Origin: Moniliella sp. 'wahieum' | Lineage: Eukaryota | Assembly: GCA_003971905.1 (NCBI GenBank) | Contig: RSEE01000003.1 | Location: 1,054,001-1,118,000 of the forward strand | Length of the DNA: 64,000 bases | Direction: 5' to 3' | Shown here: piece after piece, positions 1-56,965 of the stretch | Layout: the number at the start of each line of letters is the position of its first letter | Numbering within the stretch: the stretch's first letter is position 1 | The notes under the pieces: model-generated | What the model was told of the DNA's origin: nothing | What the model saw: the letters and a program-made list of their open reading frames with translations, nothing else | Databases searched by the model: none | Translations under genes and position numbers: made by a program

Positions 1-1694
1 ATAGTACTTTCAGGACTGTGATGCATGTTGTGATGACTGTGAGAGAGAGTCGAGATGTGAGTAACTGAGTTCAGTACTCATGGGCACATTTTGCGGGCCA
101 TAGGAGGGTCTAGGGGGATTCGCTTCGACCGCGACTGATTGGGTGACCGTGTGATAAATGTTGGATTCGTATTTGTTGGATCCGTGTTCGTGTGCACTTG
201 GTGGAGAAATACTTACTCTCGCCTTTTGTCGTTATCCATTCGACCTTATCTCACCGTTATAATTTTTCTTCAATCGGTTATCTCGTCGATGATCGATGAA
301 TCATCGATTGCCTTTTCAACGGTTCGGCACTGAGGCACTGAGGGGCTGGCTCCCAATGAGTGCGAGACCTGAATGATTTCAGCCGAGCGCGGCCGAATGC
401 AGCCAGACTTGTTACGTACAGTCTCCCGCTTCCCACGGAGTATACAGCGTACTGCGTACAGGCTAGGCGCTTGACGTTAAACGTTGAACGTTTAGTTGAA
501 CTCACAAGATAAGCCCGAGCGAGCCTGATAGGCGCCCAGCGGTTCGTTGTCCCAGCCTTAATCCAACGATGCTAGATATTAACCTCTCTGGGAATGATAA
601 GAAGGCAAGGGCGATGCTGTATGCTGTGCTCTGAAGTTCAACGTTCACGTTCACATCCAGTCTATTCACCATTCAATATTCACTATTCAATATTCACTAG
701 CACTAGGCGCAATGCTGCGGCGGGAAAGCACAGGGACGCATACCGCAGCACCTCGCAGCATCCGCGGCACCGGGACAACCACGGCCTGTCTCGGATGGTG
801 CTACATTCCCCATGTCACGTGCAGGTCCTATTTCTATATGGCCGAGGTCTGGGGTTCGCGCAAACCGGGCGAACAGAAAAACACGGGCATACGTATTTTC
901 CCGAGTGATCGTGGGGTCCTCGGACTGTCTGGGGGCCGCCAGCCAGAGACCAGCCATTGGTCACTGGCACTAGTCATTCTAGTCACTACCAAGTCACTAG
1001 CTTCACTAGTCAGCTAGTGACTAGTCACTGGTCAGGCCCAGGCTGCAGGCTGCAGGCCTCAGGTGACCGATGCGACCGGTGATCGGTGTCCGGTGGCCGG
1101 TGGCCGGCGACCTCAGGGGGTGCGCCTCAGGCTGAGGCCCTCACCGGTCACCGGTCACCAGCCACACTGACCAATCGAGGTTCGAGGTTGGACGTTGGAC
1201 GCTGGGCACGGCGCCAACGTAGACGTCTCATACGCGTCATATACCTACACCACCAGTCACTAGTCACTGCTAGTACCTAGCGACGGTCACTTGTTCATGT
1301 TACCCACATCACGATTTGGCATCCGCCTAGGTAGGGGCTTGTACAGGCCGGAGCGGAGGCAAGTCCAAAGCACAAGGCCACGGCCGCCATGCCCAAACCA
1401 AATTGCTGCTATTGGATCCAGCGACCCAACGGAAGCCATGCAGGTCATCATCATCCGTCATCCATCATGGGGCCAGGAGAGGTACGTCTGGTGTTGTGCC
1501 TTGTTGTGGCTTTTTGAGCCTAGAAGAACGCATCTTCCTCCAAGTCTATAACATTACTCAGCCCCTCAATACCAAAATAGGTGCTGTGCCTCAGCGCCCA
1601 GCGCGCCCAGTGCACTCAGCCTCAGTCTGCCTCAGCGCCTCAGCGCCACAGCGCGTTCAACGACACACCGCTTGTGACCGTGACCGGCCCCTCC

Positions 1695-1729
1695 TCAAGC
1701 TTCAAGCTTCAAGCTTCAAGCTTCAAGCT
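1695..1729. repeat. Tandem heptamer (TCAAGCT)x5
   Basis: Five perfect copies read directly. Confidence 0.95.
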
Positions 1730-1908
1730 GCCAACTTCAAGGATCGATGATTCCATGATAAATACTAGTCACACTGGGAGTGCTCCGCAATTGCCAACAT
1801 CGCCAATTGCTACCAAATTCAATTGTAGTATTGTAGGGCGCACGCTGGGCGCGGGGGCGCTGGGTCCTAGCCAACGAACAACCGCATCTCCTAGGCCTTG
1901 AAAAAACT

Positions 1909-1990
1909 AACCTTAGACCTTAGGCCCTTGGTCCTTAGCCCCTAGCCCCTAGCGTCTTAGCCCTTAGCGCCGTTAGCACCTTAGCCCTTA
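1909..1990. repeat. Degenerate CC(C)TTAG/CCCTAG repeat patch
   Basis: About 9-10 imperfect units, e.g. ccttagacct tag..ccttagcc cctagcccct ag..cccttag. Confidence 0.6.
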
Positions 1991-2917
1991 TAATAATAGT
2001 GGTCAGCGGCTACGTCACCCGTTACTAGCTACTAACTTACTGCCCCATGTCCCGCTGCATTCTGCATCACGCGTGACGTCACTCGTCTCGGTGATACAAT
2101 GCGCCATCCGCGTCACGCGTCACGCGTCACATCATGCATGGCAAAACGGGTCGCCCGCGCTGTGGGCTCCTGTGCGACAGATAGGGGCCGAGCGGTGGTG
2201 AGCGGCTGAACGCTGATAGCTTCTGGCGCACCCTGTCGCAGGTGTCACATATCACGGGAGCGATCATCGATCATCGACCAACCCCACTCCGCCACCGAGG
2301 TGGTGAGGCTCTGGCAGTGTTCTGGCGCTGTCGGTAGAGAAGCCTGATATGCGGCAGCCTGAGAGCTTGAGTGCTTGGAAGCTTGAAGCTTGAGAACAGC
2401 CCATGATTAATTCCGATAGATATGCTGCGCACCAACGGACATCTCAGTGGGCGCAAGGGCTGGCGCCGTGCTGGCCCAAACTGCAATTCAAATGTGCGCC
2501 CTCCTTGATCCACCGGAGAGGCCTCCTGCCCCCGAGTACCAAAACTGTACCGCCGCACTGCGTCAGTGTCGAGATGTCCCGAGGACCCATGAAATTCCCG
2601 CCCGCACAGGGCCAGTGAGCCGCCGTCTTCCCTCGCCGCAGAGGGCGCCCGCCGTTCACAAACGCCCAGTCGGCCTGCCTGCTTGCCTGCTGTCCTGCCC
2701 ACTTTTGCAAGCAAACTCTGTGGCTGGCCTAGTTCGACTGGCTGGGCTGCACCCAACCCCCTTTAGCGCCTCTCAGATCCTCCCCAACGCCATCTCCATC
2801 CCCATCACCACCACTCCCTCCGTCTTGTGGACACCATACAAGCATAAGCACTGTTGCGCCACCACTACCTGCGCTACCTCCAGCTTCCTCTATCTCTTCA
2901 TTTTCCTCACCCACAAC

Positions 2918-4529: not shown

Positions 4530-5688
4530 GAGGTCTTTCGAGCCTCAAAACGCCGATTTGGAAGGACATTTCCTGTTTACGACCATCACAATACGTTGGG
4601 TTGGCACAGAGTCCCCGATACAGGTAGAGTATAGCAGGATTGACTGAGGAAATGAGCAAGCTTAACATGAAAATAAATGAAAAGCTGGGACGAGGTCTGT
4701 AAACAAGCATGATCGTTTGCCTTGTTTTGTTGCATTTTGGGCTGCTTCTTTCTCCGCCCAATTTCAGCCTTGGCGCATGTGAGACATGTGAAGTGCCTTC
4801 TTCCGTCTCCTTCGCTACTTCGCTCTTCTTTACGTTGCTCCCTGCCTGCAGTGCGCCCTCCAGCCTGCTAGCTGCACAACCATTTATCAAGTGCGACACT
4901 TGAAGCTTATTGAATGTTGCCCCTCAGACCGCCATCGTGGCAGGGCGTTGCGCCCCTACTTCCATAGGGGGTCCAGAGGTGGGACCCACCCCTGTAGGTT
5001 AGGGTACCTGACCCGTGGACGGCCAATCGGAGCAACGTACTAGGGTATGCGCCCGACCTCAGATCCTGGTCGAACCGAGCGGGTGTAGAGAGGCGCAGGA
5101 GAGACCCTCTAGTTTGGGTGGCTGCCTGTGTGGCTGAGACGGCCTCAGGCCCTGAGGCCCCTGAGGCCTGAAGCCGCAGCCCGCAGCTCAGATCCACCGA
5201 GGTAGTAGGAACAGCGTACCTAGGTCGTCAGCCCCGTCGAGGGGGTCCACATGCACCACAGGAGCTCAGGGGTAGTGGGTTAGCTGAGCTGTAGCATGTA
5301 ATAGGCGGAATCAGACAGAGTCCTACTAATGAGGAGCAAGCGCTGCTGAGAGTAACTCCGCGGCTAGCAGTGTAATCAACGTGAGTCAGAAATTCGTAAG
5401 CATGGTAGAAGGTGGAAGAGGGAGGAATGGAAACATTGGAACGAGGACTAAGGACCACAGCTAGCAAGCCTTAGACATGATGTGCATGATACACGACTAG
5501 CTCATGACTGCAACAAGCAACAGGGTCGATCAGAGCACCACTGTTGTCGAGGTGTCGACGCATGCTCAGCGCGGCTGTTGGCTGCTGTTGTGAGTGGCAC
5601 TGCCCTCGTTAGAGATTTGTTTTAGGCGTAGCCTGCGCCCCGCGTCCTAGCCGTAGCGCCTCCACATTGTTCCAATTGTAATAAGCCG

Positions 5689-6034
5689 CTCGTGTAGTAG
5701 ACACCGCTGGCGCATTCCTTTGTTCTTCCCTACCACCGCCACCTCTTCTCTCAACTCGTTACCACGTTCTCCCTCACCTGCTTCTGGTAGCTCAGACCGC
5801 GCCGTCTGCCTGCTGTAGTACGTTGCTACACGGCGGAATATTATACGTTTGGTGCAGCAGCGTATATTGGGAGCGACGCAAGTATACCAGAACGCAAACG
5901 AGACACGCCGCATCAGTCTCTTCGGTGCAGACCTGAGCGGATACAGCGGAGAGAGAGAGGAGTATCGAGTATAAACGGGAGCAAGATATAGGCGGTGGTG
6001 AGGCCTGAGGCAAATACAGGCGATGCTACAAGAG
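5689..6034 (+). ncRNA. Candidate structured non-coding RNA (long irregular stem closing a multibranch loop), family unknown
   Basis: Nested complementary blocks found by eye. Several G-U pairs work only on the + strand. No family motif recognised. Confidence 0.35.
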
Positions 6035-9779: not shown

Positions 9780-10399
9780 GGCGGGGAAAGCCACAGGCGA
9801 CGCGATGGAGGTGTTGGTGGTGGGAACCTAGGTGGAGGGCCAGGTGGGGTGGAGCGGAGGGCAAGGCGATGCTGTGGGCTCTGGCCTGTGGATGCTGTAG
9901 GGTTGCTCTTTGGACGCGTGTGCCTCGACAGCGGAATGAGTACGGATGGCTTCCGCCCTGGCACCCAGATGATACATTTCATGTTTCAATGGCATACAGA
10001 CGGCACACGCAGCTGGGCGCACGGACCACCTCTGCTCCAATGTTCAACTTTATCCCAGCAAAAACGGCTGAGGCTGAGCAGGCTGAGCGGCTGAGGCGCT
10101 GATATGGATGGCCACCGTTCCCTTGTCCACGCTGTGGTTGCCACCTTCAAGTTTAACGTGACCCGCCAGGCCTCTGCCACCACCGCCACCACCGCCACCA
10201 TTAGCAACAGCAACAGAAGATTGTACTTGCTGCTCAGCCTGCGCGACAGCGTCCATTTCCGCCCTGTCCATCGCACGCTTTTCCCACCCATCCAGCGTCG
10301 GTTTGCATCCTTTTTCACTAGTTCGCCCTCCTCCAACCGATTCGCCCGCGCCTTTTTGCGACCGTCTAGCACTGCGGCGGCCACGTCCCCCCCAACACC

Positions 10400-11110
10400 A
10401 TGACGAGCAAGAGCCAGCAACCCTCAACGTCCGGTCGGTCGTCTCACCTGAGCATGTGTACTACTGCTTCGACACACTGGTGGCCTACCTGAACAACAAG
10501 CCTCAGCCAAAGCCTGCGTTCAAGAACCCCACGATGAAGTCGTACGTGTATCTCCCCCCTTCGTATATAAGGCGAGCGTGCCTCGGAGATGCTGCCAACT
10601 AACCTTGGTCTACCGCCCAGGCCTATTTTTGTGACCTGGGACACTGTCGTGGGGTCCGAGTCAGAACTACGCGGATGTATCGGTACATTTTCCAACCCGT
10701 CATTGGAAAAGGGATTGGCGTCCTATTCGCTCACGAGCGCTCTGCGTGACACGCGATTCCCCCCCATCACCAAGGCCGAGCTTCCAGAGCTCGAATGCAC
10801 CGTCAGTCTCTTGACTGGATTTGAGGATTGCAAGGATTGGAAAGACTGGCAAGTGGGAGTACACGGGATTTACGTCTACGTCCCTTCCTCGTCTGGCACC
10901 CTTACCGCCACTTTTTTGCCAGATGTGATGCCCGAGCAAGGATGGGATCATCAGCAAGCTGTGGACCATGCGATTCGCAAGGCTGGCTACTATTCCCGCA
11001 TCACCCCCCAGTTGCGTGACCAGTGTCGCGTGGAACGCTACCGTTCCGAACGCATTACCCGCTCTTATCAGCAGTATTGCGACTGGAAAGCGTCAACCGC
11101 ATCAGCCTAA
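10400..11110 (+). CDS. AMMECR1-domain protein
   Basis: HVYYCFDTL, then after intron 10542-10620 PIFVTW, LRGCIGTF, SALRDTRFPPI, ATFLPDVMPEQGW and RKAGY, all AMMECR1 hallmarks. Confidence 0.92.
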
Positions 11111-12307
11111 GCAAAGTTGAACGCTTCCAACGTTGCCCTGCATATCCCCTCTCATTGTATATTGCTCTGTATCTCGCTTTCCCAAACATCGTGGATGGCC
11201 ATATAAATCCACGTTGAACGTTGAACACACGAGCCCGCCCACCCAGGTGTACATAAGCAGCATATTACTTCTTCTCTGGGTGCTCAGGCATACAGTCTGC
11301 TTGTTTGGCTAAGGGAGAAAAAGAGGAGAGACGTACTGCATGATGATACCTTTCATCGACTTGGGCATAGGCCTGGAACCATTTTATATTGACTATAGAT
11401 ACCGAGACTGTGGCAGAAGGATCTCATTACACTTCACCCAACGGCTCAGGGGAGGGGGCAAGCTGGTAGCAGAAGATGCTAAATCGATGTGTGCGAGGGG
11501 GCTGCGGTGGTACCTTTGGGAAATTCGCAAGCGCCATTGAATAGGGAAGTACACGAGGCCAATGCGGCGGCCTGTTTAGTGCTGTCTCCTACGTCGCGCT
11601 CAACACGGCCGCAGGAACAAAAACCCAAATTCTATACAGGATCGTCCATCGATCTCCTTGTAGTCTGTTTCACGCGGAGAATTGAAGAGGATAAATCGTG
11701 TTCGATGCACTGCAGAGGGATTCCAGAGTTGCGGAAAAACTCGTACACCTCAGACCGAGTCGCTGTGTTACCGGTAGGGATGTCTCCATATGAGCGGGGA
11801 TCAACACACCGAGATGATCTCCAGCAACGTTTGTGTGGGGCTCGGCGCTAGTATAAGCCGTTGACCTTATCAACAAATCATCCCTCCACACGTGCTTTCC
11901 GAAACGCCCGATCCACGTCAGGCACTGTAAGCGCCAGCTATTCATTTGGAATCTATCCCCTCTCGACTCCCCAGGGCCAAGGATCCTATGGTAGTCCATC
12001 ACTGACGCGGACACCTGGGCTTACTGGAGTTGTACTTGTAATGTGCATTATTAGATAAAGAGGCACATGGCGAAGGGGGGCTACCGCAGTATACAGGGGT
12101 GTCGCGATGGGCGTAGACCGAGCAAAATTGAGTGGGAGAAGGGACGTCATCGGGCAAGAAAGAGACCAAGATGCCAGTTAAAGACAGAGAGAGAGAGAAG
12201 TTATTGAGAACGCATGATATCACGAGCCATGCAGGATCCAAACGCTGAGCGCAGCGGAGATGCCCCTTCCACTGAGAAGAGAACGATTAGTACTAGAGTA
12301 CACAACG

Positions 12308-18645: not shown

Positions 18646-18890
18646 TCAACGTTCAACTTGAACCTTGAACGTTCAACGTTCGACTGAGATCTGAGAGCGA
18701 GCAATATCAGCATCGGCATAAAAACGTACGATGGCAGTGTACGTAAGCACAACCATTGAACGTTGGTTAATGACGTTAAACGTTACGCGTTAAACGTTAA
18801 TGGTTGAACGTTGCACGTTCAATGAATTGGACGTTGTTGAACGTTGAACGCTGCACGTTCAATGAATTGGACGTTGTTGAACGCTGCACT
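18646..18890. repeat. AACGTT/TGAACGT-rich repeat patch with a ~40-nt tandem duplication
   Basis: Many TGAACGT/ACGTTCA units. TGCACGTTCAATGAATTGGACGTTGTTGAACG occurs at 18812 and 18852. Confidence 0.85.
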
Positions 18891-22117: not shown

Positions 22118-22895
22118 TCAGAACCAAGATGCCGAGGCAGTAGGACGCCATGCCACACCTGCGCCCGGAGTGGCCACAAGCCAAGAATTGCCCCCTGATC
22201 TTGTGCTGCGCGAGCAGGAGAACATGCATCACACTTACCATGAAATCCGCCGGCGCCATACTTCTTTCACCGGCACCGATCCCCTGCTTTTCCCACGGCG
22301 CGCACTCTATGGGATTTGTTGGAACATCCTCTCGAGCCATCGCCTGCCTCCCCGTAATAGGGGGGGGGTAGATGGCACCGCCGCTCTCCGAGACGTCGAC
22401 TCAGTGCTAGAATGGTTGGTACTGACCTCTCTAGCTTTGATGGCGAACCTTTTATTTATCCTTGCGCCACCTCTTTGTTCAGTCTATGTTCCCTTTGCAT
22501 CTGTTGGACGCTACCAGCGATCTACACGTCTCCATGGTCTATCATTCTTGTTGCATGTGCCACCGTCTTGTCTATATCGCGTTTACTTCACTGTTAGGTA
22601 GTATGACCGACAGATATCATATGTGTTTTTGTCGCCCGTATCCGATTCCTGCTGAGAAAGGGCAAACATGTGAGCTAATGAGTCCTAGCGCCGGCGTCAT
22701 GACGCACGCGCCATGTATGCCAGCACATGTGCAAATCCATTGACATAATCGACATAATCCACGTTCCCGGCAGCGACAATGTTCGGCAGTCCGTCTACAG
22801 TGTCCAACGACAATCAATGAATGACATCCACCATTCCGACTCTGGCTCTAACTGTAAAATGTAGCAGTAAGGATAAGGGTTTTCGGAGCAAAAGC

Positions 22896-38082: not shown

Positions 38083-38399
38083 AAAAAGCAAGCGCATCCC
38101 CCGCATCACGGTACTAACCCTCTCCCGGCTACATCGACGCATACTGAAGGCTCATGGCTCATGCATCGTGTCGCCCCCTTGCTAAATTACGAACTCAATT
38201 CAAACAGTCCGCGCACCCCTCGTAGGGCACCGAGGGACATGTAGCATCCTGTGGTCCAGGCAGGAATCCCGCCCAAGTCAGTCTGATGGACTGTAAGTGG
38301 ATAGTGTGCAAGGCACTGAACTAGAGCAGCGCAGCCGAGTGCAATTTGTAGATGGATGAAAGGTGCGTGCATAAGCAAACACGCAAACGAATGAAACTA

Positions 38400-40544: not shown

Positions 40545-43459
40545 GATGGGGTACGGTGTATGGGTGAACAGAATGGACGAGTTCACTCAGAGTGGCTGAG
40601 CGAGGTGGTAGTGGTGGTGGTAGACGCGAAACACCGGAAGAAGGTGGCGGCGCAAAAGGGTCACTGCGCCCAAATGTTCTCTTTTTGTCATATCTCCAGG
40701 TTGCACCTTTTTGCCCGCAACAGATGAGGAGTGATCTTCTGCCCTTTGCTGCCTTCAACGTGGGTCTAAAGAAGTATTGGGGCACGCAGGACCATGCAGG
40801 TACCGAGCGAACCATGCAGATGGTACTGCGGGACACGCGCACGATGCGCGCATCAGTATTCTTCAGTAGTACTACTGTTAGTCACTCCAGTCAGTCACCT
40901 AGCCGCCCTACTGTCACCACGGCAGGTACACTCGGGCATATCACATGTGACTAGTGACTCGTGATTAGTGACTATGGACAGTGTGCATCAATCTGTGCTC
41001 ATATTTATACCCTGTCTTCCCTACGGCGAGCAACCGTTCACCCTGGGCTCAGGCCTCAGGCTGAGGGCACCGCCCATTAATCATTCGGCTGCCGGTCAGC
41101 GCTCTCAGCGTGTCAGCCTCAGCTCAGCCTCAGCGCTTACCTTTTCATTTGGATACAGCAGGAAGCTTGAAGGCATTGAGGCCTGAAGCCTAGAGGTAGA
41201 GTCGATGAGCCGATTCCATGATGGATGCGACGTGGGAGCATGGAAAAATCTGCTATTCGGCTGTCAAACTTGCTGGATATCATGTCACACCCCTGGCCAT
41301 ATCCTCTGCCAGGAAAATCTGAGTATTGGCTTAACTGACTGCTGTAACTCGTGTACTGAATCCTCTTTGGACTGTACTGATGAGCGTAAGCAAGGGTGTG
41401 GTACTGTCGTCACATGTCACCGAAGCTGGAAGTGGTCTGTGTGCTCCTGTTGTGATACCAACGATAGCCAAGAACCAATCGAACGCCCCTTCCATCGTCT
41501 GTGCCTATACAAAACACGTATCCAGTAGTCAGGAATCCATCACACATTTCCACCCGGTCGCCCCCGTTTTGTTCCGTTGTCATCCCCTGTGGACTGGGTG
41601 CGTGGGCACGCTCTAGATGGTAAGTGTTGGGATTTGCACGCTACTGTGGCGTGCGCCATGCAGATAGCTGGTTTTATATATAGGGACTACTCCGGGGCCG
41701 CGGGCCAACAAGAAGGATAGTGAATAGGGCTTTTATATAGACTGTCCACAAAACAACTTGTCTAGCTGTGCTGCGCGCGCACACCAACGATTATCCTCTG
41801 CTTCTCAGCGCCTGCATCCCACCTCTCATAATGCATAACTCATCGATCTCACCGGCGCAACTCAGATCACAGATCTCACCCCCGCTCGACTCTTCTCCCC
41901 ACTGTTCACAACTTCGCTCTGTCTCCTTTTTTGGCGACTGTAGTAAATATTATCGATCACCTCTTGTCACATGCATGGCACATGTAAGTCGCCTAGCCAC
42001 CGGACCGGCCACCGGCCACCCCTTTCTACCCCAGCATCTCTCACAGAGTGACTAATAGTGATCGCTGTGCGCCACACGATGAAACACATCTAGCACCACA
42101 AGGAGTCACTAGAGTAGCACAGCGTCACTATATTCACTCGCGTCAGGCCAATCACATTAATCACTACTGGAACTCAGTACTCAGGTACTCACCCCACTAC
42201 CAGGAGGCACCAGGCAGTGTACTCCTGCTGAGAAGCACCCCCCGACCGAGAAGCACGAAAACTTATACTCACGCGACTCACGGCCGTCTCGCTATATCAC
42301 CGGTCTTTCTCCCAGGCAAGGCAGATCCTCAGATCTCCGAACATAACAAAGACACAGAGGCGGCGGAGTAGCAGAAGCTAAGTAGGTCCCAAAAGCACAG
42401 CGATTGCATTAGAAGAAAAGGCAGGTATAATATAAGGCGTAAGAAAGGGTGATGTGCCAGTATGTGCACACTAGATAGGGTGTGAGTTATGCTTACGTAT
42501 GTTATAGTGATGAGCAAGCAGTCGATGCAGTGACGACCCAATGCCTACTACACTGCCGACGCATAGTATGCCATGCAGTTTCGAAACCGTAATGTGCCTG
42601 TGACAACGGTGACCAGAGAGTACTCAGTACTCAGTATCATACCCATCTTCGTCGCCGTGTGTCCAACTAGCAGAGAGAGAAGAGAGAGACAGGCTGTGGC
42701 GGCAATAACTAATCTCGGTCCACATGCAAGCCGTAAGCGCGTAAGCAGCCTCCCCACGCTGACCAACATAATGTACCGCTGTGGAAATCATGCATCATGA
42801 GAGAGGGTCTAAAATCTCTACCATCGATACACACTACTAGTACTGTACTGTAGCGGTGAACATCTCCGTCGTTTTCCATCGCTTTCATCATTTTTATCGA
42901 GTTCATCCATCGTTTGTACCAACAGTTTTTGTTAGGCGTGTCATGCGGCCGGGGTTTGCCTCACATTGCACTGACTACCCCAACGTCAAAAAACCGCGTA
43001 ACGGGCCTACTCCTAGTCTCGGTTGTGGGCATTGATGAGATCTGAGACCTGGGGTCTCCTGATCATGTGCCAGGTCCTCGAGGGAATATGCATTCGCACT
43101 GGTCCTGATGGTGGCCAAACTAAGCCAACCAGCAACGCCTACAGAGGAACATAGAGCACCCAGTCGCCACCAGGGGCTGGACTGTGGTTGGAGCAATAAG
43201 GAAAACGGGAGGACGAAAACGACGGAACTCCTTGTCTGAGGAGGACTGAAGGCCAAAAAACACACAAGCCACCCGCGGTGTGGCTCAACAGGTACGCTTC
43301 AAGCTTCACGAACAGCCTCGGCGTGCTGTCTACTACTATAGTCCTCTATCTCCTCTATCTCCTCTCTCTCCTCTCTCTCCTCTCGGGGATGCCGAACGGT
43401 CCGTCTTGCCGACAGACTGTCATGGTGCCCGGGGCTGGTCCCCTGCCGGTCTCGCTGGA

Positions 43460-43508
43460 TGAAGCTTGAAGCTTGAAGCTTGAAGCTTGAAGCTTGAAGC
43501 TTGAAGCA
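43460..43508. repeat. Tandem heptamer (TGAAGCT)x6 plus a degenerate copy
   Basis: Six perfect copies, then TGAAGCA. This is the reverse-complement phase of the 1695 array. Confidence 0.95.
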
Positions 43509-43833: not shown

Positions 43834-43867
43834 CCATGCATCATGCATCATGCATCGTGCATCATGC
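43834..43867. repeat. Tandem heptamer (TCATGCA)n, ~5 imperfect copies
   Basis: ccatgca tcatgca tcatgca tcgtgca tcatgc. Confidence 0.85.
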
Positions 43868-44027: not shown

Positions 44028-47000
44028 TCACAACGACGCAGGTTCAGGCGCAGTAGCCGGGTGCGGCAGGCCAGGCGCCGAGGCAAACTACGACGAAAAT
44101 CCCAAAATCCAAGAGGTTAGTTGATAGTTCCTAGTTCTCACACCAGAAGGGAGCACGAAGGAAGTGTAGGGGGAGGGGGACGTACCGTCTCTTCCACCAG
44201 AGCGCAATGTTTCGTTCCAGCAGCCAAGTCCATCAGGTAACACAGTACCAACGTATCTGCCGTATCGGTGAGCAGACCGGTTAAGGCCGTGCCAACCAAC
44301 AAAGGCGGCACCGCACACACTGCCGCCGTGACAAGCGCATGGCCACCCGGTTCGTCTCGTACCACCGCCACATAGCTCGCGCAAACCGCTGCAATCAGTA
44401 CTGTTACACTGTACGTCACGCGCCCGCCCCAAGCGGCGCAACACGCGCCGCATGGACAGGCGCCCGCGGTCGTCCTACCGCACCTCAGCCGGTACTGAGC
44501 TTCGTAGTGCCGCCGCACGGTGCGAGGCCGTTCCCATAGGCGCACCAGTGATGCCCGTGTAGAGAATGGCGTTCGACGCATGTTCCTCCACCACCGCTTC
44601 CACCCCCACGATGAGCGAGGCGAGGTAGGCCAACGGATCCAACAGACGTGCCACCCCCCCAACAGCCGACTGAGCAGGCCCCCCCTACCATCATCGATGC
44701 GCCAGCGCCAGGCGGGAGCGCGGCTTGGCCAGCGGTAGCGGCGAGGCGCACCAAGGCCACATGGTGCATCCACGATACCCCCTGCACAAATGCGCGAGCA
44801 AACAGGATCAGGATCCGGGCCAAGCCCAACGCGGTGCGCAAGAGCGACGAGGCCATCACACTTCCCAACGCAGGACCCAGCGCGACGAAGGCCATGCGAA
44901 ACCACGTGGTCCCCCTCAGCCACTGTGCCCACCGCTCCCTCTTCTTCGTCTTCATCTTCGTCCTCGGATCGGCATCAGTCGACATGCCCGACGAGGACCC
45001 GGTCAAGCTCGCTTCCGACTCCGACTCCGACTCGCTCGACGCTTGCCTCGCCTCCGACGCGGAGGAAGAGTAGAAGTACCAATAGCTCACTGCCGCTGAC
45101 GTGGTGAGTTTCAGCACATTAAGTCCTGTTGATGTCACCCCCCCCGGCAAGCAGGAGGGCAAGACTGAGCGGGAGCGGAGCGAGTCCCAATGGATCCGCG
45201 GGCACCGGGGGAGGTTTAGGTCGCTTGCCAGGGCTAGGACGTGGTAGTGCGCGAGAGGCAGCTACCGCGGCCAGACGAGTGAGAGGACGAGGCAAAAGAC
45301 AGCGAGAGCCACGAGGGCGAGGCTGGTGACACACGCTACGAACGCAAGTGAAGATGGGTCCTGACCACGTGAGCGGCCAAGATCGCCGTCCGACTTGCCT
45401 GCGGTAGCTTCTTACGTTCGGCCCAGACCCTCGACCCCGTTCGTACCGCCGCTACAGCACAGAGCCCAGCACAGAGCGGCAAAAGCCAAGAAAAGGGCGT
45501 GGAGGGAGAAAAAGATCCGCCCAGCAGGGCGATCGAAGCGGCCGCCAGGGCAAATGGGACAGTTGCACTCATCACCCGAAACAGGGCAAGGATGGTGGCG
45601 AATTTGCGGGAGCGACGAATCGAGGTGTGGGTTCTAGCAAGACGCTGGAACACCGAGAAAAAAAGACGCCCATCCCGCCTGCCAGCACACTCGACAACGC
45701 TAGCAGCGGTGCCGTTCGCAACATAGCATCGTGCAATGGTTCCTTCCCACCTCCGAGACCCGGTACCGCAGGGAGTGAGGGTGCCTCCCATGCCCCCAGC
45801 ACACCCAGTACCAACACAGGAAATACAAAGAGCACAAACAGGATCAACGCCCAAAGATCGTGCCTTTCCCGCAACCACGTCGCTGCCGCTGGACTTGCTC
45901 CCTGGGCAAGGCGCGGAAGGGGACGTGCCGGGTAGGATCCAGCAGTGCACGTCGGGTCCCTGAGCGGGGGTGTGGACGAGAAGGAGCAGCCGGGCTGCCT
46001 ATGAAGCTGCCGGTCGTGCTGCGCAGCATGGGGATACTCTCTTGGCCCGCGTGGTGCGAATCGTCCTTTCGTCGGGGCGGCGAACCAAACAGCGCACGGA
46101 AAAACGTAGAGTGAGGACCCGTATCGGACCGGCGCTTGCTCCGCCGCGGCACAGTCTCTGTAGCATCGGACTGCTCACTTGTCTCCTCTTCACTCTGTGT
46201 GGGCCCAGCAAACCGCGAGGGCGGGGCCCCTGATTTGGACGGAGCGCTTTGCCCTGATCCACCGGCGGAGGAATGGGAATGGCGATACTAGGTTGCAAGC
46301 CTAGGACCTGCTCGTCGTATACGTCCTGTTGCAGAAAGCGCTGCTGGTGGACAAGGAGGTGGGAGGGCGCGGGGGGGCAAGGTACGAGCCACGAACTTGG
46401 GCTTTGTGCATCCGCAGAGGATTGCCCCATCGCCCGCCAAACGATGCCGAGGGCGTCGAGTCGTAGAACGATCCACTGCTCTCGGTGGCCACGTGTGAGG
46501 GGTTGGTCCGGCCAGGGGGTCGGAGGCGGTGCTGATGCTGATGATGGTGGTGGTGTTGGTGCTGATGCTGGTGTGGGCGCGGGTGGCGGCTGGAGCCCAC
46601 AGGGCTGGCCGTGCCGGCACTCTCGTCGCCCGAGTAGGACGCAGACGAATACTCTTCGACAGAGTGCATCTGTGCTGCCTCATTCTGCAGGCGCAAGATG
46701 GAGCGGTGGGCGTCCTGGGCAGCCTGGGTGCGGGGGGAGGGGGGGCGCGGGGCATCAAAAAGGGGGAGGAGAGGGCGGGGTCGAGGGTGGGCATGCCGGC
46801 GCGCACGCGGGCAGGGTGGAGGCGGGGCGGATGCGGGGCGTGGATAGGGGGGTCGTGCGGGGTGTCGAGGAAGGGGTCGAGGAGATCGCCATCGTCGGCA
46901 TCGGGGTGGGCGGCGGCGGGAGCGGCGGGGGCAGGGAGGGTGGTGGCGGCGGCGGCGGGGGCAGAGGGGTCGTCGGGGTCGTCGGGGTCGTCGGGGTCGG

Positions 47001-47067: not shown

Positions 47068-47543
47068 GGTGGTGGGGGCGCGCGTCAGGGGGCGGGAGGT
47101 GCTGGGGGTGCTGGAGGCGCCGAGGGGGTTGATTAATGAGTAGGGTTGATCGAGATAAGCTGGGGCTGGAGGCTTACGTCAGCATCCAGGCGATCGTAAG
47201 CCACCATGCATCATGCATCACGCTCGCTTGGGCCGTGTCCGCCGCAGCGCCAGTGGCGCACCTGCAGCCTCACCGGTCGCATCCCCGCGCCAGCTCAGCC
47301 AGCTGATTAATCTGCCACTGCCGACCCTCGCCATCGATCTCAGCGCACCAGGCACACCACACGCCCTCGACGGATCCGCATGCCTCCCCCTTGAAATTCC
47401 ATCCAACTCCCCCCCCAGCGCAGACGAGTAGGATTTCGCATAATATGTTTGTAATGTACTGGCAGGTGGTAGCGGCGACATGGTGCAGAGACAAAAAAGA
47501 GGGGAAACGAGACTAGGGCGCATTCCGATAACGACATCAGGCC

Positions 47544-48486
47544 TCAGGAGGAAGGCGAAGCGGCAGGTTCGTCCTCCAAGCTAACAAACTCTTTGACCAA
47601 GCTCGTGTTGAGGAACTGGGCCATCTTGGGCTGCACAAACAGCCCCGCAGCCTCGGCCAAGATGGTGCCATCGATCGTCCGCATCGTCGCAGTGACCGTC
47701 GCTTTGCGGCCCTTGGCTTGCTGGATGTGGTCTGAAGCACAATATTCTGATTGGCAAACGTAGGCGAGCGGTAATTGACCTCGAGCTTGGCCGTCACGCC
47801 AACGTGGGCGGGAAGAACATGGAAGGCTGATCGGGCCATGTTCTCATCAAACAAGGTTGCGATCAGACCACCATGGACCACACCATCGTGTCCACACAGC
47901 GAGCGACGACCCATGCAACAGCACCGTCGTGTCGCCAGCATGGCCGCCCTCCACGGCCGCCCCATGCGCCGTCTTGGTGAGCACAATGGGCGCAGTGGCC
48001 AAGAGACCCGGGCCGCGCAAGGTGCCGGCAGTGAGGTTGTGCTGCCGCCTTTCCTCGGGGTAATTCTCATATGGCCGACTGAGACGGTAGTGGGCAGAGG
48101 GAGAACGGTCGGACGGTTCGGCGCTTTCGGACACAATCACATCTCCGTTTGTGTCACGCTGCTCGGGCACCGACACGCGGTTGCGCAATCTTGCACCAGC
48201 TCGAGGGCATGGAGATCGACTCGACCTGGCGGGTCAGAGCTTTTCCCTCTTCCGACTCGGCGTCGGGGCGGGGTGGGGCGAGGCGTGGGGACGCGAGAAG
48301 CGCAAGACTGGGGGGGTAGAGGGCGCCGCCGGCGTACCCGAGGCCCAGGGCGCCAAGGACGAGGAGAGTGGTGCGGACGGGCCGCTTTGGCCGGGTGGAG
48401 GAGGAGGAGGCATGGGTAGAGAGGTGGGCGCGGGCGGCGGCGCCGGCGACCGAGAAAAGGATTGTTGGGCGCGAAAGCGGGCGCAT
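47544..48486 (-). CDS. Hotdog-fold acyl-CoA thioesterase (THEM4/Fmp10-like), probably mitochondrial
   Basis: HNLTAGTLRGPG, LCGHDGVVHGGLIATLFDE and VTAKLEVNYRSP. Arg/Ser-rich N-terminal presequence plus a TM segment. Confidence 0.85.
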
Positions 48487-49010
48487 GGAGCAGTGTGGTG
48501 GGGGCGGGAAACGCGAGAGAGGGCGCGGCGGGAAGATGTAGTGATTAATGATTGGAGGCACTGATGGTCCGCTGAACGTGGCGGCGGCAGCACGTGAAAC
48601 CGGGGAGCCTGGCACCGGCGGAGGGTGACGGTGAGGCTTGCTTGGCGTGAGGCTTGCTTGATGCGCTTGATCGATGCGGCGCCGCGGCTGCTGCAGTGCG
48701 CCAGCAAAAGCTCTAAGCTGCGACACGCGCCCACCTGTATGCACGGGGGATCGCATTTCACTTTCCCTTTCACACTCCTGGGCCGGCCCTTGCATCGGGG
48801 TTGTGAGGCTGCGGCCTCGGAGGATCAGCGTTCAGTGCGATCAGCGGCCGCGCCAATCTCCGTGCTGTTGCACCGAGCGGACGCTGAGCTAAGCACGCGT
48901 GCGATGCGGTTGCGCGCAGCCGTTGTTGGCCTTTCCAGCGGCCCTGCCCCTTGCAGCGACAACCAACAGCAGCTGTCCGCGGCCTCGGACGCCGCTCCAC
49001 CGCCACCGCC

Positions 49011-51494
49011 ATGCCTGCCTCCCCTCCGCTGCATGCGCCAGCCGCCCCGCCCGCCCCCGCCTCCCCTCCGCCTCCGCCACCACCTCCACCACCACCCCTG
49101 CCCCCGCCCACCCCCTCCTCCCCGACCCATCCCCTGCCCCTGCGCCCACAGCAGGTGCCAGCACCAGTGCCCCCGCCCCCATCTCCCCGTCCCCCCTCCT
49201 TGATCCCGCCCCGACGGTCCACTCGGCTGCCCAGCGGGGCGATGTCGCCACGCTCGACACACTCATCTCCTCCACCAGGCCCGCGCCACCGACCGCGACG
49301 CCGACGGCATTACTCCGCTCCACTGGGCCGCCATCAATGGCCAGATCCCCGCTTGCCTCTACCTCCTGGATCATGGCGCCGAGGTAGACGCCCGCGGTGG
49401 CGAACTCGCCGCCACCCCCTGCAGTGGGCCACCCGTGTAGGCCACCTCTACGTCATCCAGCTCCTCATTGACCGCGGTGCCGACCCTCTGATGACCGACG
49501 CCCAGGGTTTAATACCCTCCACCTTGTTATCCATTCCTCCACTGTCATGCCCCTTGTGTTCTTGCTGCAGCAACCTGTCTTTGCTGCCAGTGCAGCCGAC
49601 ATACCCCCTGGATCTGCTGCTCCCTATCCTCAAGGCCCCCGACCCCGCGTATTGCGCGGTGTGGATTCGGAGGATACACAGCGCCACACATCTCATGTGG
49701 GCCGCGTACCAAGGGGATGCACTGAGCGTGGAGCTGCTGCTCGCTCATGGCGCAAGTGTGGCCACCCATGATGACCTTGGTCTTACCCCGCTTCACTGGG
49801 CTGTCGTAAGAGGAAATCGGCTGTGCATCCGTCGCTTGCTTGAGGCCGGTGCAAGTACCTCGGCCAAGGAGAACGAGGGCAAGACGGCAAGGGAGATGGC
49901 CGATGAACTCAAGTCCCTCAGTGCCTACGACAAGGCATTGGCCGATGCAGGGTTGGACTCGCAAGGACATCGCAAAAACGTTTCTTCAGTCCGTATATGA
50001 CCAACGTCTTGATTATGCTGCTTCCTTTTGCTTTGGTCGGTGTGGTGGCCAAGACATTTGCTCTGGTGCCTTGGTTTGCTGCTTTGCTTTTTGCCGTACC
50101 ACAGGCGTATGCGATGCATTACACCGTGGCCAAGATCTTGCTCGACGATCAAGAGCCACAGTCGATCCAAAGGTCGGTTTACTTTTTGGCCATCGTCTCG
50201 GGCTCCATTGCCTGGGTCGGGCTGGTATGGGCAGTCAAGTTTGTGTGGGCCACCCCGGCCACGGCTGGTCCAATACGGCGATGTTCGTTGCTCTTCTCGT
50301 TTGCTGCTACACACCTGTACCGATCTGCCGTGATGGATCCAGGCTATGTTGGTCGCCCTCAAAGCGAGGTCGAACGGAGAACATTGGTGGAAACATTGCT
50401 CAAGGAGAATCGGCTCAACGGACAAAATTTTTGCATTCCCTGTTTGGCGCGTAAACCACTGCGCTCAAAACATTGCCACATCTGTAAACGTTGCTCGGCC
50501 CGGCACGATCACCACTGCCCTTGGACAAGCAACTGCATTGGCGTCAATAACCATCGCCAATTTATCCTGTTCCTCACGGCGCTTGTTTGGGCGTGATTGA
50601 CTTTGCGTATCTCTCATCTATCTGTATGTACAGCTCTCTGGTTGACGTTTGATATACTACCCCTGCTAACCTCTGTGCTCGCCCGCCCAGATTTGGTCAA
50701 CCAAGTAAGTTCATGGGAACCCCCTGAGCAGTCGTTCTGTCTATTCCCCAACGACGTGTGTCGAGCGATGGAAACCGACATGTTTGCCGTTGTGATTACC
50801 CTTGGGCATGCCTGCAGTTGACATGGACGGTGGTACTACTGCTGGCGCAGCTGCTGCAAATTGCGCGACAGATGACGACCCTGGAGATGAGCAATCTTGG
50901 TCGCTACGGCTTTATGGGCGGGGCGGTACCAGCATGGCATCGCAAACCAACTTTGTGGCACAACGTCAAGGGGCCACGGGCGTAGCTGGCTCGCCCGAAG
51001 GCTCGGATACTGGCGCGAACGCGGGACAAGCCCAGGACCACCACCACACCACCCCTGGCTTTCGGCAGACGATGGCTGGCATGGGCGGGTGCCTGCTCCG
51101 TGTTGTCGGGCTCGACCTCTACACCCGCGGCAAGGCTGGCGAGGGCCTACGTCGCGCAGGCAAAGGCGGCAATCCATTTGACCTTGGTCTCGTTGCCAAT
51201 TGCCGCGACTTTTGGACGCGGGGAGACGAGCTGGGAGTGGATTATACCAAACTGTACGACGTGCCGCCGCAAGGGTTTGCTGCGGTGGTCAAAGAACGCA
51301 AGGCGATGCACCGCTCCGACCCATCCCCGTTCTTCCACCACCGCCGGATCAAGTTGTTACCTTTGACCAGCCAAGATGTGGATGCGGAGCGACCGAGAGA
51401 CACTCCGAGGCAGCGCTGGACCTTGCGCTCGCCGTTTGGTGGTGTGCGAGATTCCAGTCGCGGCCAGTACGCTCACCTTGCCTCGGAAGTATGA
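49011..51494 (+). CDS. AKR1: Ankyrin-repeat DHHC palmitoyltransferase Akr1
   Basis: Ankyrin repeats ([29 protein letters not shown]), [30 protein letters not shown] and NPFDLG..NCRDFW. Confidence 0.93.
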
Positions 51495-52282
51495 AGTATG
51501 ACCCACGCAGCGCTTTGCGCCTCGTGCTGCCGTGTGCTATGGCTATGTATGACGCATGACGCGCGTCGTCCAAAGAGATGCTTGGCGCCCGGGTGCCGGC
51601 GGGCTAGTCGGTCTGCTGCCCTGCTTTACTTGGAGAAGGGTGTGGTGGACGCTGGTCCAGAGGCGCTAGTAGGCAGTAGGCATAGGATCGATGACAGTCG
51701 CGTGCGAGGCAAGGGCGGGCGTGGGGCTGAGGGCGAGGCGAGTCGATGCATTGGCTGCGCAGGGGGCGGGCCCCTTCTGGGGAGCAAGGTGGAGCAGCCT
51801 GGGCCTCCTTGACCTCCCTTGGAGTGTTGGCGGGGAGTGTTTGGCGGCTGAAGCTCCCAAGGGGCGCAAGGGGACTGGACCGGTGGACGTGTGCACGTGT
51901 GCACGTGCGGGGGTGACATGTGACATGTGACAAGGCCAGCATTGGGCACTGGGCGCCGAGGCGGCGGACTTAAACCCCGGAATTTGTCAATCGGCGAGGC
52001 GGCCGGCGCACCAGGGCAGTGTGCCTGCTCCCTGTGAATGGCAAGCGGGCGCGGAGAAAGACCGCAGGAGTGGCAATTAATTCTTCCCTCTGGCGGCTCG
52101 GAGCTGGCAGCTGGGCCGCCCCGACCCGCGCAACGCTTCAAATAAGGCTGCTGCCAACAACCCCGGGCGAGTTGGTTGTCTACCACCTTCTGCTCTGCCC
52201 TTGGCGCCTTGTAGCAGCCGTTTGTCTTTCCGTTCGTCCGTCCGTTCGTCTGTCCGTTCGTCTGGTCTGTCCATTTGTCGCT

Positions 52283-53381
<1,099 letters not shown>

Positions 53382-53951
53382 ACGAGGGCGATTCGTTGGC
53401 CAACTCGGTTTCCTCTCTCCCTCCCGTACCGAGGGCGGGATCAACGATGCGTTCCTCGCTTCCCATCCGGCACCCTCGCCCCGTCGGGCCAACAGGGATT
53501 TAACGATGCTCTGTTGAGTACGCTGGGCAAATCAGCCGAGTGAACTGAGAGGCCGTGTTACTTTGTATCTCCCCTCCCCTTTCCTTGGCCAAGGCGCTGT
53601 GCTGTGATGCATTTTTGCAGTCTACGCTATGGATGCTCGCTGTGGATAGTATCCTCTGGGTGTATGGACCCGGACCCGGGTCAAGGAGATGCAGTGGCAG
53701 TTGCATAGCATTCCAACTGCCCCGCCAGCACGCTATTTGTCAGTATGATGACGCCTCCACCAGAAAATGGACCAAGATAATGAGCAGCAAGTCTGCGGGT
53801 ATGGATAAAACAAAGAGGTAGTGGACTGGGAGGAGGAGGAAAGGGAGAAAGAGATGCCATGGGATGACATGAGATGAGATGGCATGAGAGTGACGATGAA
53901 AATCCTGCACTTTGAAGACCAAGGCCAAGGCAAGACAGTACCCAGCAGCGT

Positions 53952-56206
53952 TCATGGTACGTTCTTTTGTTTTCCCGACTGGGAGAAGGCCGAGTGCGAA
54001 CGCGGATCCTAGGTGTGTCCAGCGTGGATTTGGCGCCTGCAACGCGTCGAGGAACCCAAGCGCCTTGCGGGGGGATCTGGCCACCTGAGTCGCGGGAGGA
54101 GCAGTCGAGTGCCGCCTCGGGCCGGACGAGGTGGGGGGTGAGAGGGAGCACAGCCACCACGGAGGCCCCCCACATAGGAAATAGTTGCTCATCGATCCCC
54201 ACCTCCCTCGGCCAGCATCAGCCAAGGGACCATCTAACGCATCACTTTGACCTTGGTTGAGCACGGGACTGGACGGACCACTGCCCGCCTTGGCGTCATC
54301 GTGGTTGACAAAAAGCCAAGACCGCGCCAACTCGTCCCCGCTATCTTTTTGCTCGTTGGCCAGTCCTCCCGGCGGGGGGATGTACCCTGCCGATTCATCG
54401 CCGTCACAGCTAACCGCCGCAAACTCGCGGTGCCAGCGGCAAAGCAGCGCCTGAGGCGGCGATGCTCTTGCCCAGCGCAGCACGTGGCTCGTCCAACGTG
54501 GCAGCCAAACGTGCCGACACACCTTCAAGGACCGACAAGCGCCGTTCAAATGGATGCTGAATCCCTTGTCCCGTCGGGTCGATCGGGTGGATGCTTCCAG
54601 ATGTGATAGGCAGGCGTTTTGCCAACCGCACGACAGAACACCGACCAAAATGGGAGATAGCCAGAGTGGCGCTGCTCATCTCAGCAGTGGCAGGTGCAGT
54701 AGCTGGTTCCGTAGGCGACATTGGCCTGTGCAAGGTCGGGTCGGTGGGGTGTGCCGGGACAGTGGCGGGCCACCGGACCCAGAGAGGCAGGCACGGATGT
54801 ATACCATCAGAGGGCACTACAGTGGCAGTCCCTCCCGAGGAAGCCTCGACTCCTCGGCTTGACGAGTGGCCATCAACAGCGAGGTAATGTACCTTTGAAA
54901 TCGTTTCCCGAAGCCATTCGTCCGAGCCACGGAAGCCCAGGGCAGGTCTGGTCCGGCTTGGTGGTATCCCACCCTTCCAGCACAGCTGGAATGATCTCCT
55001 CCTCCATCCAGCGCTTGTCGGCTGTGGTGAGCAAAACCGCCTGTTGCAGCTCCAGGGAGTCATTGGACGCGGGGCAGAGTACACTCGACTCTATGCCAAG
55101 GGCGGAGGGGGGTTGTGAGATGGAGGAGAGGTAGATGGTGAAGGGTGAACGTTGGGATTGGGGTTATGAGAGGGAGAGCTTGGTGCATCCCCAGACTCGT
55201 CCAGGCTGCAGCAGATGATGGACATGTCCTCAATGTTGACGATAACGTCAATGCTGATATCTTGCTGACTTAACACGATCGGATTGCTTGTCCTACCAGC
55301 CAAGAGGTAGCTTTGAGAGAATCAAGGTGCTGTAATGGAGGTACGGATGAAAAATGGCGTTGCCACTAAAGATTGGCACAGTCTGGGGGAACCAGGTGGA
55401 CAAATGGGTTGGGCCTCGGCACAGTCGTCCAGGTGGGTCATCAAGCCTGGGAAGCAGGAAACCAAAGAATATTGTGCCATACACAACTTCTCAATTGGGT
55501 ATCCGAGAACAAATTCTCCGCTGGAGTAGATGAGCTTGAGGAGGATGAGCGTGTGGCTCCTCCACTCATACACAAAGCGGCGCAGGTTGGTCCCCATGCC
55601 CAAGGCGATATCTAACAAGCGCAGTGAGGTGGGCAAGGACAAGATGGAGGGCTGGACTCCCGATCCCATCGAGTCGGTCGGTATGGGCAAGCTGGGGTTG
55701 GATTCGATTCCTTGAGCGATTGACGCAGAGCTGCTTCCAGCGTGCTCTCGAGGCTGTGGCTAAAGTCAGCAAGCAGCTCGCGATCGTTCAAGTCGCCTGG
55801 TGAAAGTAAGCACGTGTCACAATGGCTAGCTTGTCCTGCACCGGATGGAAGACGGAGCGCGAGTGAGGATCACAACTGCCTTCTGGATGGTGGAGCGGGT
55901 CATGCCCGTTTTAACCTTTAGTTGCGACACGGCACTTGCCTGGTGCAAGAGACACCAAAGATGGTGCCACCAGGGCGGATGGGATGCTGTGCATATGAAA
56001 GAAACAAAAGTCCTCTTCCAGACGGTTGCTACCGTCGGGCAGGGCAAAAAAGGAAGGTCGTTCATCAGCTGGGGATCGTCGCCCAACGAGTCGGGATACG
56101 TCCACTCCACTTGCGGGCCGACCTGGTGGTGGAAGTTGACTACCGCCACGCCGACCACCAAGGGGAGGGTGGAAGTGGCAGGAGCAGGACCAGGGACGGT
56201 GGACAT
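53952..56206 (-). CDS. AVL9: Avl9 / DENN-like late secretory pathway protein
   Basis: VAVVNFHHQVGPQVE, FFALPDG, TRSTIQKAVV, GYPIEKLC..QYSLVS and GSDEWLR. End approximate. Confidence 0.85.
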
Positions 56207-56965
56207 GGCGTGGCTGGCTCCCTTGGCAGGGGTGGCCAGAGAAAGAGAGGTGGTGAGCGCAGCCGTGGTGGTTCGACCGACGATCCCCGTCCCCTTGAGT
56301 TGGTTCTGCCTGTAGCGCCTCCCGTGTCCTCCTAAGTCGCATATGCTCGCATGCGTCATGCGTCCTCTCACAGGGGCTGCGCGCTTGCGCGGGCGGGCTG
56401 GGTGAACGTTTCAAATACGGTCAGCTAATTGTAGTCCGCCCCACTTTACCATCACGTGGTCTACATGGCCAGCTGCTAGGCGCTCGCCGGACTGGGGCCT
56501 GGGCTGCGTAAGGCCCAAAGCCTACTTAATACCATACACAGGGACTGCCGATTACCGAGGATGGACTGCCCTCCATTCTCAGCAGGCCGTCTGGGGCCCT
56601 AAGGCCAGGGAATGCATTGCTACTGCCCCTCATCATGCCAGTCAGGCCTCAGACCAGGGGGCGGGGGTGCATAACGGATCGTGGGGTTCGGCTGGAACGG
56701 CAGAATGGTGCTTGGGTGGGATCCAACGCTCCTGAGACGCACCCGCAAGTTGGCGCCCATCCGTTTCAAACCAGCGCACGCTGCGCGTGTGCAGCGCACA
56801 GCCTTCCGTTTAAATGCATTGACGCGTCGCGCGCGCGTCCGGCGTGGCCAGATTACATAAGCCACGACGCGTCGCCGGTGGTCGGCCGTCCATGGCAGCC
56901 CAGCGCACCGCGCCCATCTCGGGGTTTGATCCTCCCATCGGCTGTTGCTCTCGCCTGCTGCTGCC

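Follow-up and report, generated by a model that had tools for sequence, protein, structure and literature searches.

Transposons of the hAT, Transib and MULE groups, and the RAG system, form hairpins on the flanking DNA, which are opened by host factors and closed by end joining, leaving footprints (PMC5499845). Footprints of Ac/Ds with palindromic (P) nucleotides are known from Candida, yeast and plants, and 128 excisions in Candida gave 28 footprint types (PMC5873905). In rice, a two-genome alignment identified intact duplications in 8 of 94 excisions, deletions of ∼18 bp and fillers of ∼13 bp being dominant (PMC4423477). The targets of hAT elements are T..A-symmetric (nTnnnnAn and nnnTAnnn; PMC10512250). 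Transib and RAG transposition gives 5-bp duplications at GC-rich targets (PMC1131882). Basidiomycete elements with a 7-bp target duplication are hAT7 of Pucciniales rusts and Kyakuja of Laccaria, so elements with the stagger that concerns us here exist in Basidiomycota; that report does not mention Ustilaginomycotina (PMC12730594). Here we analyse a 64-kb window of the fungus Moniliella sp. 'wahieum' (GCA_003971905.1, contig RSEE01000003.1, positions 1,054,001 to 1,118,000, forward strand), in which short heptamer repeats centred on T-N-A recur with a four-base palindrome between them. We argue that these repeats are very probably mutational scars of DNA breaks at T-N-A and not recognition sites.

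All counts come from this one window. There are 111 occurrences of T[CG]A-N4-T[CG]A, of which 56 have a palindromic N4, at 37 loci (loci were separated when more than 50 bp apart). In 200 shuffles preserving dinucleotides, palindromic 10-mers numbered 3.68 on average (standard deviation 1.88, maximum 9). This agrees with the chance expectation of ∼4 per window given in a first-pass annotation of the same DNA, and the excess of palindromic over other spacers that it proposed held against this control. The 10-mer is indeed present in all 13 coordinate groups listed there, and 13 of the 16 possible palindromes are used (AATT, TATA and GCGC are absent from full 10-mers). The estimate of ∼30 loci found by eye was real but missed nine hits (5162, 7295, 18666, 18838, 31664, 40948, 41410, 60021 and 61776). 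The 10-mer had also been called self-complementary, which is true of only 6 of the 56; the other 50 are direct repeats (TCA..TCA or TGA..TGA) with an identical central base.

The enrichment is specific. When 32 trinucleotide classes were compared it was found in TCA/TGA alone (56/111), the runner-up being CCC/GGG (16/165), and when spacings of 0–12 were compared it was found at N4 alone (N2 11/49 against a null of 25%, N6 1/93, N8 0/53). In rotated form the unit becomes a 6-bp palindrome, A-NNnn-T, with one extra C or G; there are 60 occurrences of C[ANNnnT]C and 49 of G[ANNnnT]G, against 3 to 19 for the remaining flank combinations around A..T palindromes. With any base at the centre, the palindromic share of TNA-N4-TNA is 66/146 (45%) in the window vs 106/1502 (7.1%) in control DNA, which consisted of 80 unrelated eukaryotic metagenome loci (524,627 bases) drawn with the RPN2 fragment of the window. 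The five control loci that were checked (L016, L058, L059, L062 and L064) have ∼40–58% identity to fungal RPN2 and are not close relatives. One of them, the 15.3-kb contig L062, has 6 palindromic spacers among 37 TNA-N4-TNA, 4 of them between the same TNA, somewhat over the 6% null; it holds no perfect 12-mer of the kind described below, and its slight surplus is probably chance.

The palindrome is not free, as the first-pass annotation had assumed, but is dictated by the two bases that flank T-N-A. In 31 of 39 same-flank runs the 7-nt period runs on beyond one end of the 10-mer by at least 2 nt (null 0.121; binomial probability 9e-22). The minimal object is therefore a 12-mer, x1x2-TNA-x2'x1'-x1x2-TNA, whose "palindrome" is two flanking bases preceded by their own reverse complement. 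The window has 62 perfect 12-mers, where shuffles give 0.37 and the control DNA (525 kb) has 2; those of the window merge to 32 loci covering 489 bases. An unbiased scan for a 5-mer, 2 nt and the same 5-mer, in which the 2 nt are reverse-complementary to the two opening bases of the second copy, gave 111 matches against an expectation of ∼8 (from 4^-7, both strands), and recovered T, S (C or G) and A at positions 3–5 unprompted (68, 90 and 69 of the 111). Copies with a single violation of the rule number 66, vs 9.2 in shuffles, as expected for older scars in decay. Templating is from the left flank only at 14 sites, from the right flank only at 14 and from both at 17; the equality of the two sides is as predicted for a target that is symmetric about the central N. 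Total periodic length is 12–13 nt in 18 of the 39 runs and at least 14 nt in 15.

The centre, too, is constrained. Fifty-five heptamers consist of a 6-bp palindrome and one base, and their centres are T-N-A in 43, GNC in 9, CNG in 2 and ANT in 1; a TNA plus palindrome unit accounts for 43 of 151 period-7 runs, where 2.7% (7/256) would be expected. Among 45 flank-templated sites the central base is C or G in 42 and W (A or T) in 3. Since the DNA free of open reading frames (ORFs; defined below) offers 656 TSA and 255 TWA sites, ∼12.6 W would be expected among 45 events. The preference for C or G is real, but the centre is T-N-A and not strictly the TSA of the first-pass annotation. Outside T-N-A, no clear target preference is seen in 28 reconstructed sites. 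The G-N-C-centred heptamers, such as (CAGGCTG)n at 1039–1057 and 1033–1063, form 9 runs (6 GCC/GGC, 3 GAC/GTC) where ∼4 are expected per centre type; they may mark a weaker second target or be chance.

The scars can be described with X, a 7-mer nnTNAnn (x1x2TNAx6x7), of which one copy keeps p P nucleotides at the joint and the other loses p' bases, the net change being 7 + p - p'. The +7 class is dominant, and every scar contains the duplicated 7-mer, or 5 of its 7 bases, twice. Joints are even palindromes of four bases (2+2), and 1+1 and 4+4 variants are also present. The products of p = 2 and p = 3 are identical because T pairs with A. Variants with equal p and p' are rare: exact X-X (p = p' = 0) is found at 2 loci and p = p' = 1 at 2, and p = p' = 4, which converts TCA..TCA to a true palindrome TCA..TGA, at 4 loci (5 counts over the two strands) vs 0.45 in shuffles. 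Two minor classes hold P nucleotides between complete 7-mers: X+1P+X (+8) at 329, 1630, 42732 and 62249, and X+2P+X (+9) at 5151, 22744, 42267 and 63537. Against a stricter null, in which every tandem repeat is kept and its unit shuffled, the classes stand out at period 7 (11/39 vs 0.90), period 8 (4/20 vs 0.61, P = 0.0025) and period 9 (4/31 vs 0.30, P < 0.0005). Of the periods not divisible by 3, period 7 alone is in strong excess (151 vs 67 runs; for runs of at least 14 nt, 39 vs 4.7 expected), and period 8 shows a mild excess (20 vs 5.2), a spectrum for which a 7-bp duplication accounts. Other insertion sizes do not stand out: +3 products (TNATNA) and +5 products are within shuffle range (57 vs 37.7, shuffle maximum 59, and 7 vs 4.6), and the +6 class is not significant (5 vs 1.05, shuffle maximum 5).

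Three other constructions were tried and rejected. A scar made from transposon tips (3-bp duplication with 2+2 terminal bases) is ruled out, as the core copies the flank, and an inverted copy of the whole 5-mer is ruled out, as the central base is kept rather than complemented (50 vs 6). A 5-bp duplication with 2 P nucleotides covers the +7 class but fails for the +8 and +9 classes. The +7 class by itself cannot separate 5-bp from 7-bp duplication because the product is the same; a 7-bp target is favoured because templating is symmetric, and a 5-bp target would put TNA at one end.

For the origin of the scars as a whole, we lean by a modest degree towards a 7-bp staggered break at T-N-A with even hairpins, most likely through insertion and excision of a transposon. 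At a primary event, the site x1x2-T-N-A-x6x7, with N mostly C or G, would become a pair of 7-mer copies with an even palindrome, copied from the flank, at the joint. The target would be opened with a stagger of 7 bp centred on T-N-A, and the 7-mer duplicated in the manner of a target-site duplication. The intervening DNA would then depart, with both flanks sealed as perfect (even) hairpins, and a host nuclease would nick each hairpin ∼2–3 nt past the tip, leaving a 3' overhang that is self-complementary, with the 5' strand recessed to T-N-A. Finally, one overhang would be joined directly to the recessed strand of the other end. Hairpin-opening nuclease cuts ∼2 nt 3' of the tip, and an arm of 2–3 nt is the classic P-nucleotide size. 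Since the p palindromic bases gained equal the p bases lost opposite, the net change would be +7 whatever p, hence the strict 7-nt period. The product would hold two fresh copies of the target with symmetric flanks, on which repeated hits and later slippage could grow (TNA + 4-bp palindrome)n in phase. Each array would copy two bases of its own flank, which explains the local "dialects" of the arrays. The hairpin route appears probable. The likeliest agent would be a cut-and-paste transposon that makes 7-bp duplications at nnTSAnn and RAG/Transib-like hairpins at the exact boundary, over many rounds of insertion and excision; for a transposon as such we consider the chances even, this being the step furthest removed from the sequence.

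Several points weigh against this account. The +7 class fits a 5-bp duplication plus 2 P equally well, and the case for 7 bp rests on the eight +8 and +9 loci and the symmetry. No transposase or integrase family matched any of the 129 stop-to-stop ORFs of at least 150 aa in the window, and no segment bounded by inverted repeats and flanked by TNA or any 7-bp duplication was found in the window. The 32 perfect loci in ∼17.7 kb of ORF-free DNA demand a very active element, and no copy is present here. Known excision footprints vary far more than these scars do. The odd joint of the Ac/Ds type ("both complemented" 14-mers) is found 0 times in the window, "left complemented only" 14-mers without an even palindrome twice (vs 0.15 in shuffles). 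Lastly, the mechanism leaves the C/G preference at the centre unexplained. The window contains no usable dispersed repeats for a copy-to-copy comparison of insertions.

The main rival, which we regard as unlikely, dispenses with the transposon. A host or domesticated nuclease would break nnTSAnn, in staggered or hairpin-capped form, or a repair polymerase would turn round and write the +7 directly; in the latter variant a 7-nt overhang is filled in and the turn at its end adds 1–4 inverted bases. The lack of an element or transposase in the window suits such an agent, and the uniformity of the joints resembles a concerted enzymatic reaction more than the messy repair that follows excision in rice and Candida. 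A precedent is Kat1, a domesticated hAT transposase of yeast that makes hairpin-capped breaks (PMC4763223). Yet no candidate gene is known, and it would be costly to have promoters scarred throughout the genome by a nuclease. The duplicated full 7-mer also bears the hallmark of strand transfer into a target opened with a stagger, something that a simple nuclease can do without. The window data do not separate this rival from the transposon model.

Ordinary microsatellite dynamics, in which chance heptamers expand by slippage and hairpin-capable units (6 of 7 bases self-paired) are favoured, are improbable as the source. Arrays do span 2.7 to 7.7 copies, and slippage probably contributes once there are at least three. 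Only the longest folds clearly better than shuffles as a single strand (-14.6 kcal/mol, z -5.9); for four shorter arrays folding brings no gain over shuffled sequence (z -1.4 to -2.0). Its statement that the arrays read identically on both strands apart from the central C/G is correct. Most loci, however, are single structures of 12–13 nt, beyond what slippage creates, and 43 of the 55 palindrome heptamers have T-N-A at the centre though all four centre types would pair equally well. Nor does slippage account for P nucleotides between the complete 7-mers of the +8 and +9 classes. Slippage needs an existing repeat and can make neither the minimal 12-mer, nor the T-N-A centre, nor the inverted two bases. 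Of the mutational mechanisms that the annotation had raised, slippage thus does not fit, and the general idea of such a mechanism is supported by the templating and by the surplus of near-misses.

The same annotation offered, as an alternative, a protein that marks promoters and terminators. Functional cis-elements, read by a protein as TCA/TGA half-sites 7 bp apart or through the shape of palindromic DNA, are in our view very improbable. TGA and TCA are half-sites of several fungal factor families, and the motifs are concentrated in non-coding DNA. We define the latter by a proxy that is not an annotation, the absence of any stop-to-stop ORF of at least 150 aa, which leaves 27.6% of the window. 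This part holds 41 of the 53 same-flank hits, vs 45 of 80 non-palindromic TNA-N4-TNA. The restriction is expected in any case, because a +7 insertion breaks the reading frame, and no regulatory role is needed. Hits are spread alike over convergent (e.g. 4924–5649, 22599–23097 and 28929–29955), tandem and divergent spacers; the large spacers 1–2273 and 40882–44140 are rich in them (16 and 17 hits), and the 742-bp divergent promoter region 9829–10570 has none. Thirteen cores are in use, each a copy of its own flank, which recognition by a binding protein would not call for; the reconstructed targets show no preference past T-N-A, and decayed copies are abundant.

An assembly or polishing artefact is extremely improbable, as it would neither follow a flank-templated rule and centre on T-N-A, nor avoid long ORFs, nor come with mutated older copies.

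Table. Scars, arrays and compound loci in the 64-kb window (X, duplicated 7-mer; P, palindromic nucleotides; core, four-base palindrome)
Positions	Feature	Remark
288..299	+7 scar, core TCGA, centre TGA	perfect 12-mer
329..343	+8 scar, X (ACTGAGG) + 1 P + X	unit-shuffle-tested class
636..647	+7 scar, core ACGT	perfect 12-mer
671..696	two +7 scars 14 bp apart, core ATAT	perfect 12-mer
1016..1029	+7 scar, 4 P (TGA..TCA, true palindrome), core CTAG, within complex CTAG locus 960–1034	
1141..1159	array (TCACCGG), 2.7 copies	perfect 12-mer
1255..1268	+7 scar, core CTAG, 14-nt periodic	perfect 12-mer
1630..1644	+8 scar, X (CCTCAGC) + 1 P + X, within period-8 array 1588–1654	
1695..1727	array (TCAAGCT), exactly periodic over 35 nt	perfect 12-mer
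2065..2078	+7 scar, 4 P (TCA..TGA), core CGCG	
2111..2129	array (TCACGCG), 3 copies	perfect 12-mer
2262..2275	+7 scar, core TCGA	perfect 12-mer
2382..2393	+7 scar, core AGCT, centre TGA	perfect 12-mer
5151..5171	compound: +9 scar, X (CCTGAGG) + 2 P + X, overlapping +7 scar, core GGCC	
5999..6010	+7 scar, core GGCC	perfect 12-mer
11213..11226	+7 scar, core ACGT	perfect 12-mer
18646..18696	complex: +7 scars ACGT and GATC; exact X-X 18657–18670; 4-P scar 18664–18677	
18781..18849	T-W-A-centred scars (CGTTA/CGTTAA units) and ACGT scar, within 40-nt tandem duplication	
22744..22759	+9 scar, X (CATAATC) + 2 P + X, centre TAA	
29639..29658	two adjoining +7 scars, cores TGCA and TCGA	perfect 12-mer
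38150..38163	exact X-X duplication (GCTCATG x2), non-palindromic joint, zero P	
40948..40959	+7 scar, core CTAG	perfect 12-mer
41049..41060	+7 scar, core GGCC	perfect 12-mer
41827..41838	+7 scar, core TGCA, centre TAA	perfect 12-mer
42150..42165	+9 variant, 3 P, 1 base lost, X = AGTGATT on minus strand	
42172..42183	+7 scar, core GTAC	perfect 12-mer
42267..42282	+9 scar, X (ACTCACG) + 2 P + X	
42622..42635	+7 scar, core GTAC	perfect 12-mer
42732..42746	+8 scar, X (CGTAAGC) + 1 P + X, centre TAA	
42788..42799	+7 scar, core TGCA	perfect 12-mer
43036..43047	+7 scar, core GATC	perfect 12-mer
43297..43308	+7 scar, core AGCT	perfect 12-mer
43460..43506	longest array (TGAAGCT), 7.7 copies; sole clearly stable single-strand hairpin	
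43839..43852	+7 scar or short array, core TGCA	perfect 12-mer
47209..47220	+7 scar, core TGCA	perfect 12-mer
47537..47548	+7 scar, core GGCC	perfect 12-mer
48542..48553	+7 scar, core TTAA	perfect 12-mer
51914..51932	array (TGACATG), 2.9 copies	perfect 12-mer
60019..60032	+7 scar, 4 P (TGA..TCA), core AGCT; within long ORF, may be chance	
62249..62263	+8 scar, X (AGTGATT) + 1 P + X	
63537..63552	+9 scar, X (GCTGATC) + 2 P + X; at long-ORF edge	

The loci are collected in the Table. The 40-nt tandem duplication at 18796–18875 (90% identity, built of ACGT/TGA units), which lies upstream of the genes for the kinase and the channel, shows that larger duplications act on scars too. Other repeats were noted in the window. 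A heptamer array at 1911–1990 (CCTTAGC/CCTTAGG variants, ∼10.7 copies, 76% matches) breaks the T-N-A rule, and a palindrome-rich period-8 array at 51883–51907, (GTGCACGT) x3.1, is without T-N-A and adjoins the (TGACATG) array at 51914. Between two heptamer loci, at 43342–43384, lies a pyrimidine-rich array, (TCCTCTCTC) x4.8. A GC-rich imperfect palindrome at 31542–31613 (41-nt arms, 76%), centred on GTGACGTCAC, adjoins the start of the thiolase gene. An 84-nt inverted repeat, G-rich in one copy and C-rich in the other and of low complexity (46904–46987 / 49045–49128, 73% complementary, 2 kb apart), lies within or beside long ORFs and probably belongs to low-complexity coding sequence.

The window has 58% G+C and encodes common eukaryotic housekeeping functions: an amino-acid transporter, RPN2, AMMECR1, RPN5, a protein kinase, a K+ channel, pantothenate kinase, thiolase, a Snf2/Brahma ATPase, an ankyrin-DHHC palmitoyltransferase, DAHP synthase, Avl9 and UPRTase. 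Its RPN2 fragment shares 85% identity with an unnamed protein, and the best matches that carry a name come from Ustilaginomycotina (Tilletiaria anomala, 71%; Violaceomyces, Testicularia and Sporisorium, 69%). We tentatively propose, at somewhat less than even confidence, that an extremely active DNA-breaking system not described before operates in this Ustilaginomycotina lineage, be it a cut-and-paste element or a domesticated derivative, with nnTSAnn as target, a stagger of 7 bp and RAG/Transib-like even hairpins as intermediates. On the same tentative footing, its repeated +7 scar would make heptamer microsatellites de novo, re-create its own target and rewrite a measurable part of the DNA in promoters and terminators. 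We found no description of such a genome-wide pattern in literature whose coverage left subscription journals largely outside. If the proposal is true, tandem repeats can be born from single templated insertions and not from slippage, and the scars in promoters and terminators may be a lineage-specific source of regulatory variation. Behind the pattern there would be a transposon, or a nuclease derived from a transposase, with unusual activity and an unusual target (nnTSAnn, 7-bp stagger). The genome would also preserve a natural record of hairpin opening and end joining, thousands of events in all, from which the preferences of these reactions in a fungus could be read (P length 2–3, loss equal to gain).

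Among known systems, (CNG)n repeats are hairpin-forming microsatellites, and the long arrays of the window can likewise fold with one C.C or G.G mismatch per unit. In contrast to them, the units here would arise by templated insertion around a T-N-A centre and not by slippage, and most loci are too short to fold. The rice study treats excision as a process whose yield of small non-coding insertions can be measured (PMC4423477), which is its parallel to the window, but the window scars follow a single rule, are legible in one genome and are stacked as tandem arrays.

The likeness to hAT elements (Ac/Ds) lies in a duplication kept on both sides, short palindromic insertions and T..A-symmetric targets. 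However, hAT joints are odd palindromes on the complement of the base that adjoins the element, a type not seen here, and hAT footprints are heterogeneous with an 8-bp duplication, whereas the window scars are uniform. A duplication of 7 bp, which the +8 and +9 classes suggest, would match hAT7 and not canonical hAT. The coding joints that RAG makes in V(D)J recombination, and the nick-hairpin pathway of Transib, provide the parallel for even palindromes whose template is the terminal flank bases; such palindromes suggest a hairpin that was sealed precisely at the boundary, cut open a few bases from its tip and then resolved by end joining. They differ in that RAG and Transib duplicate 5 bp, while full 7-mers are duplicated at eight loci of the window and templating is 14:14; V(D)J joints are diverse, with deletions and N additions, and the scars are near-uniform. 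No RAG- or Transib-like gene and no CAC-type end was seen in the window. Two features characterize excision footprints left by flank hairpins in general, a target duplication on both sides and P nucleotides templated by the flank, and both are found in the scars described here.

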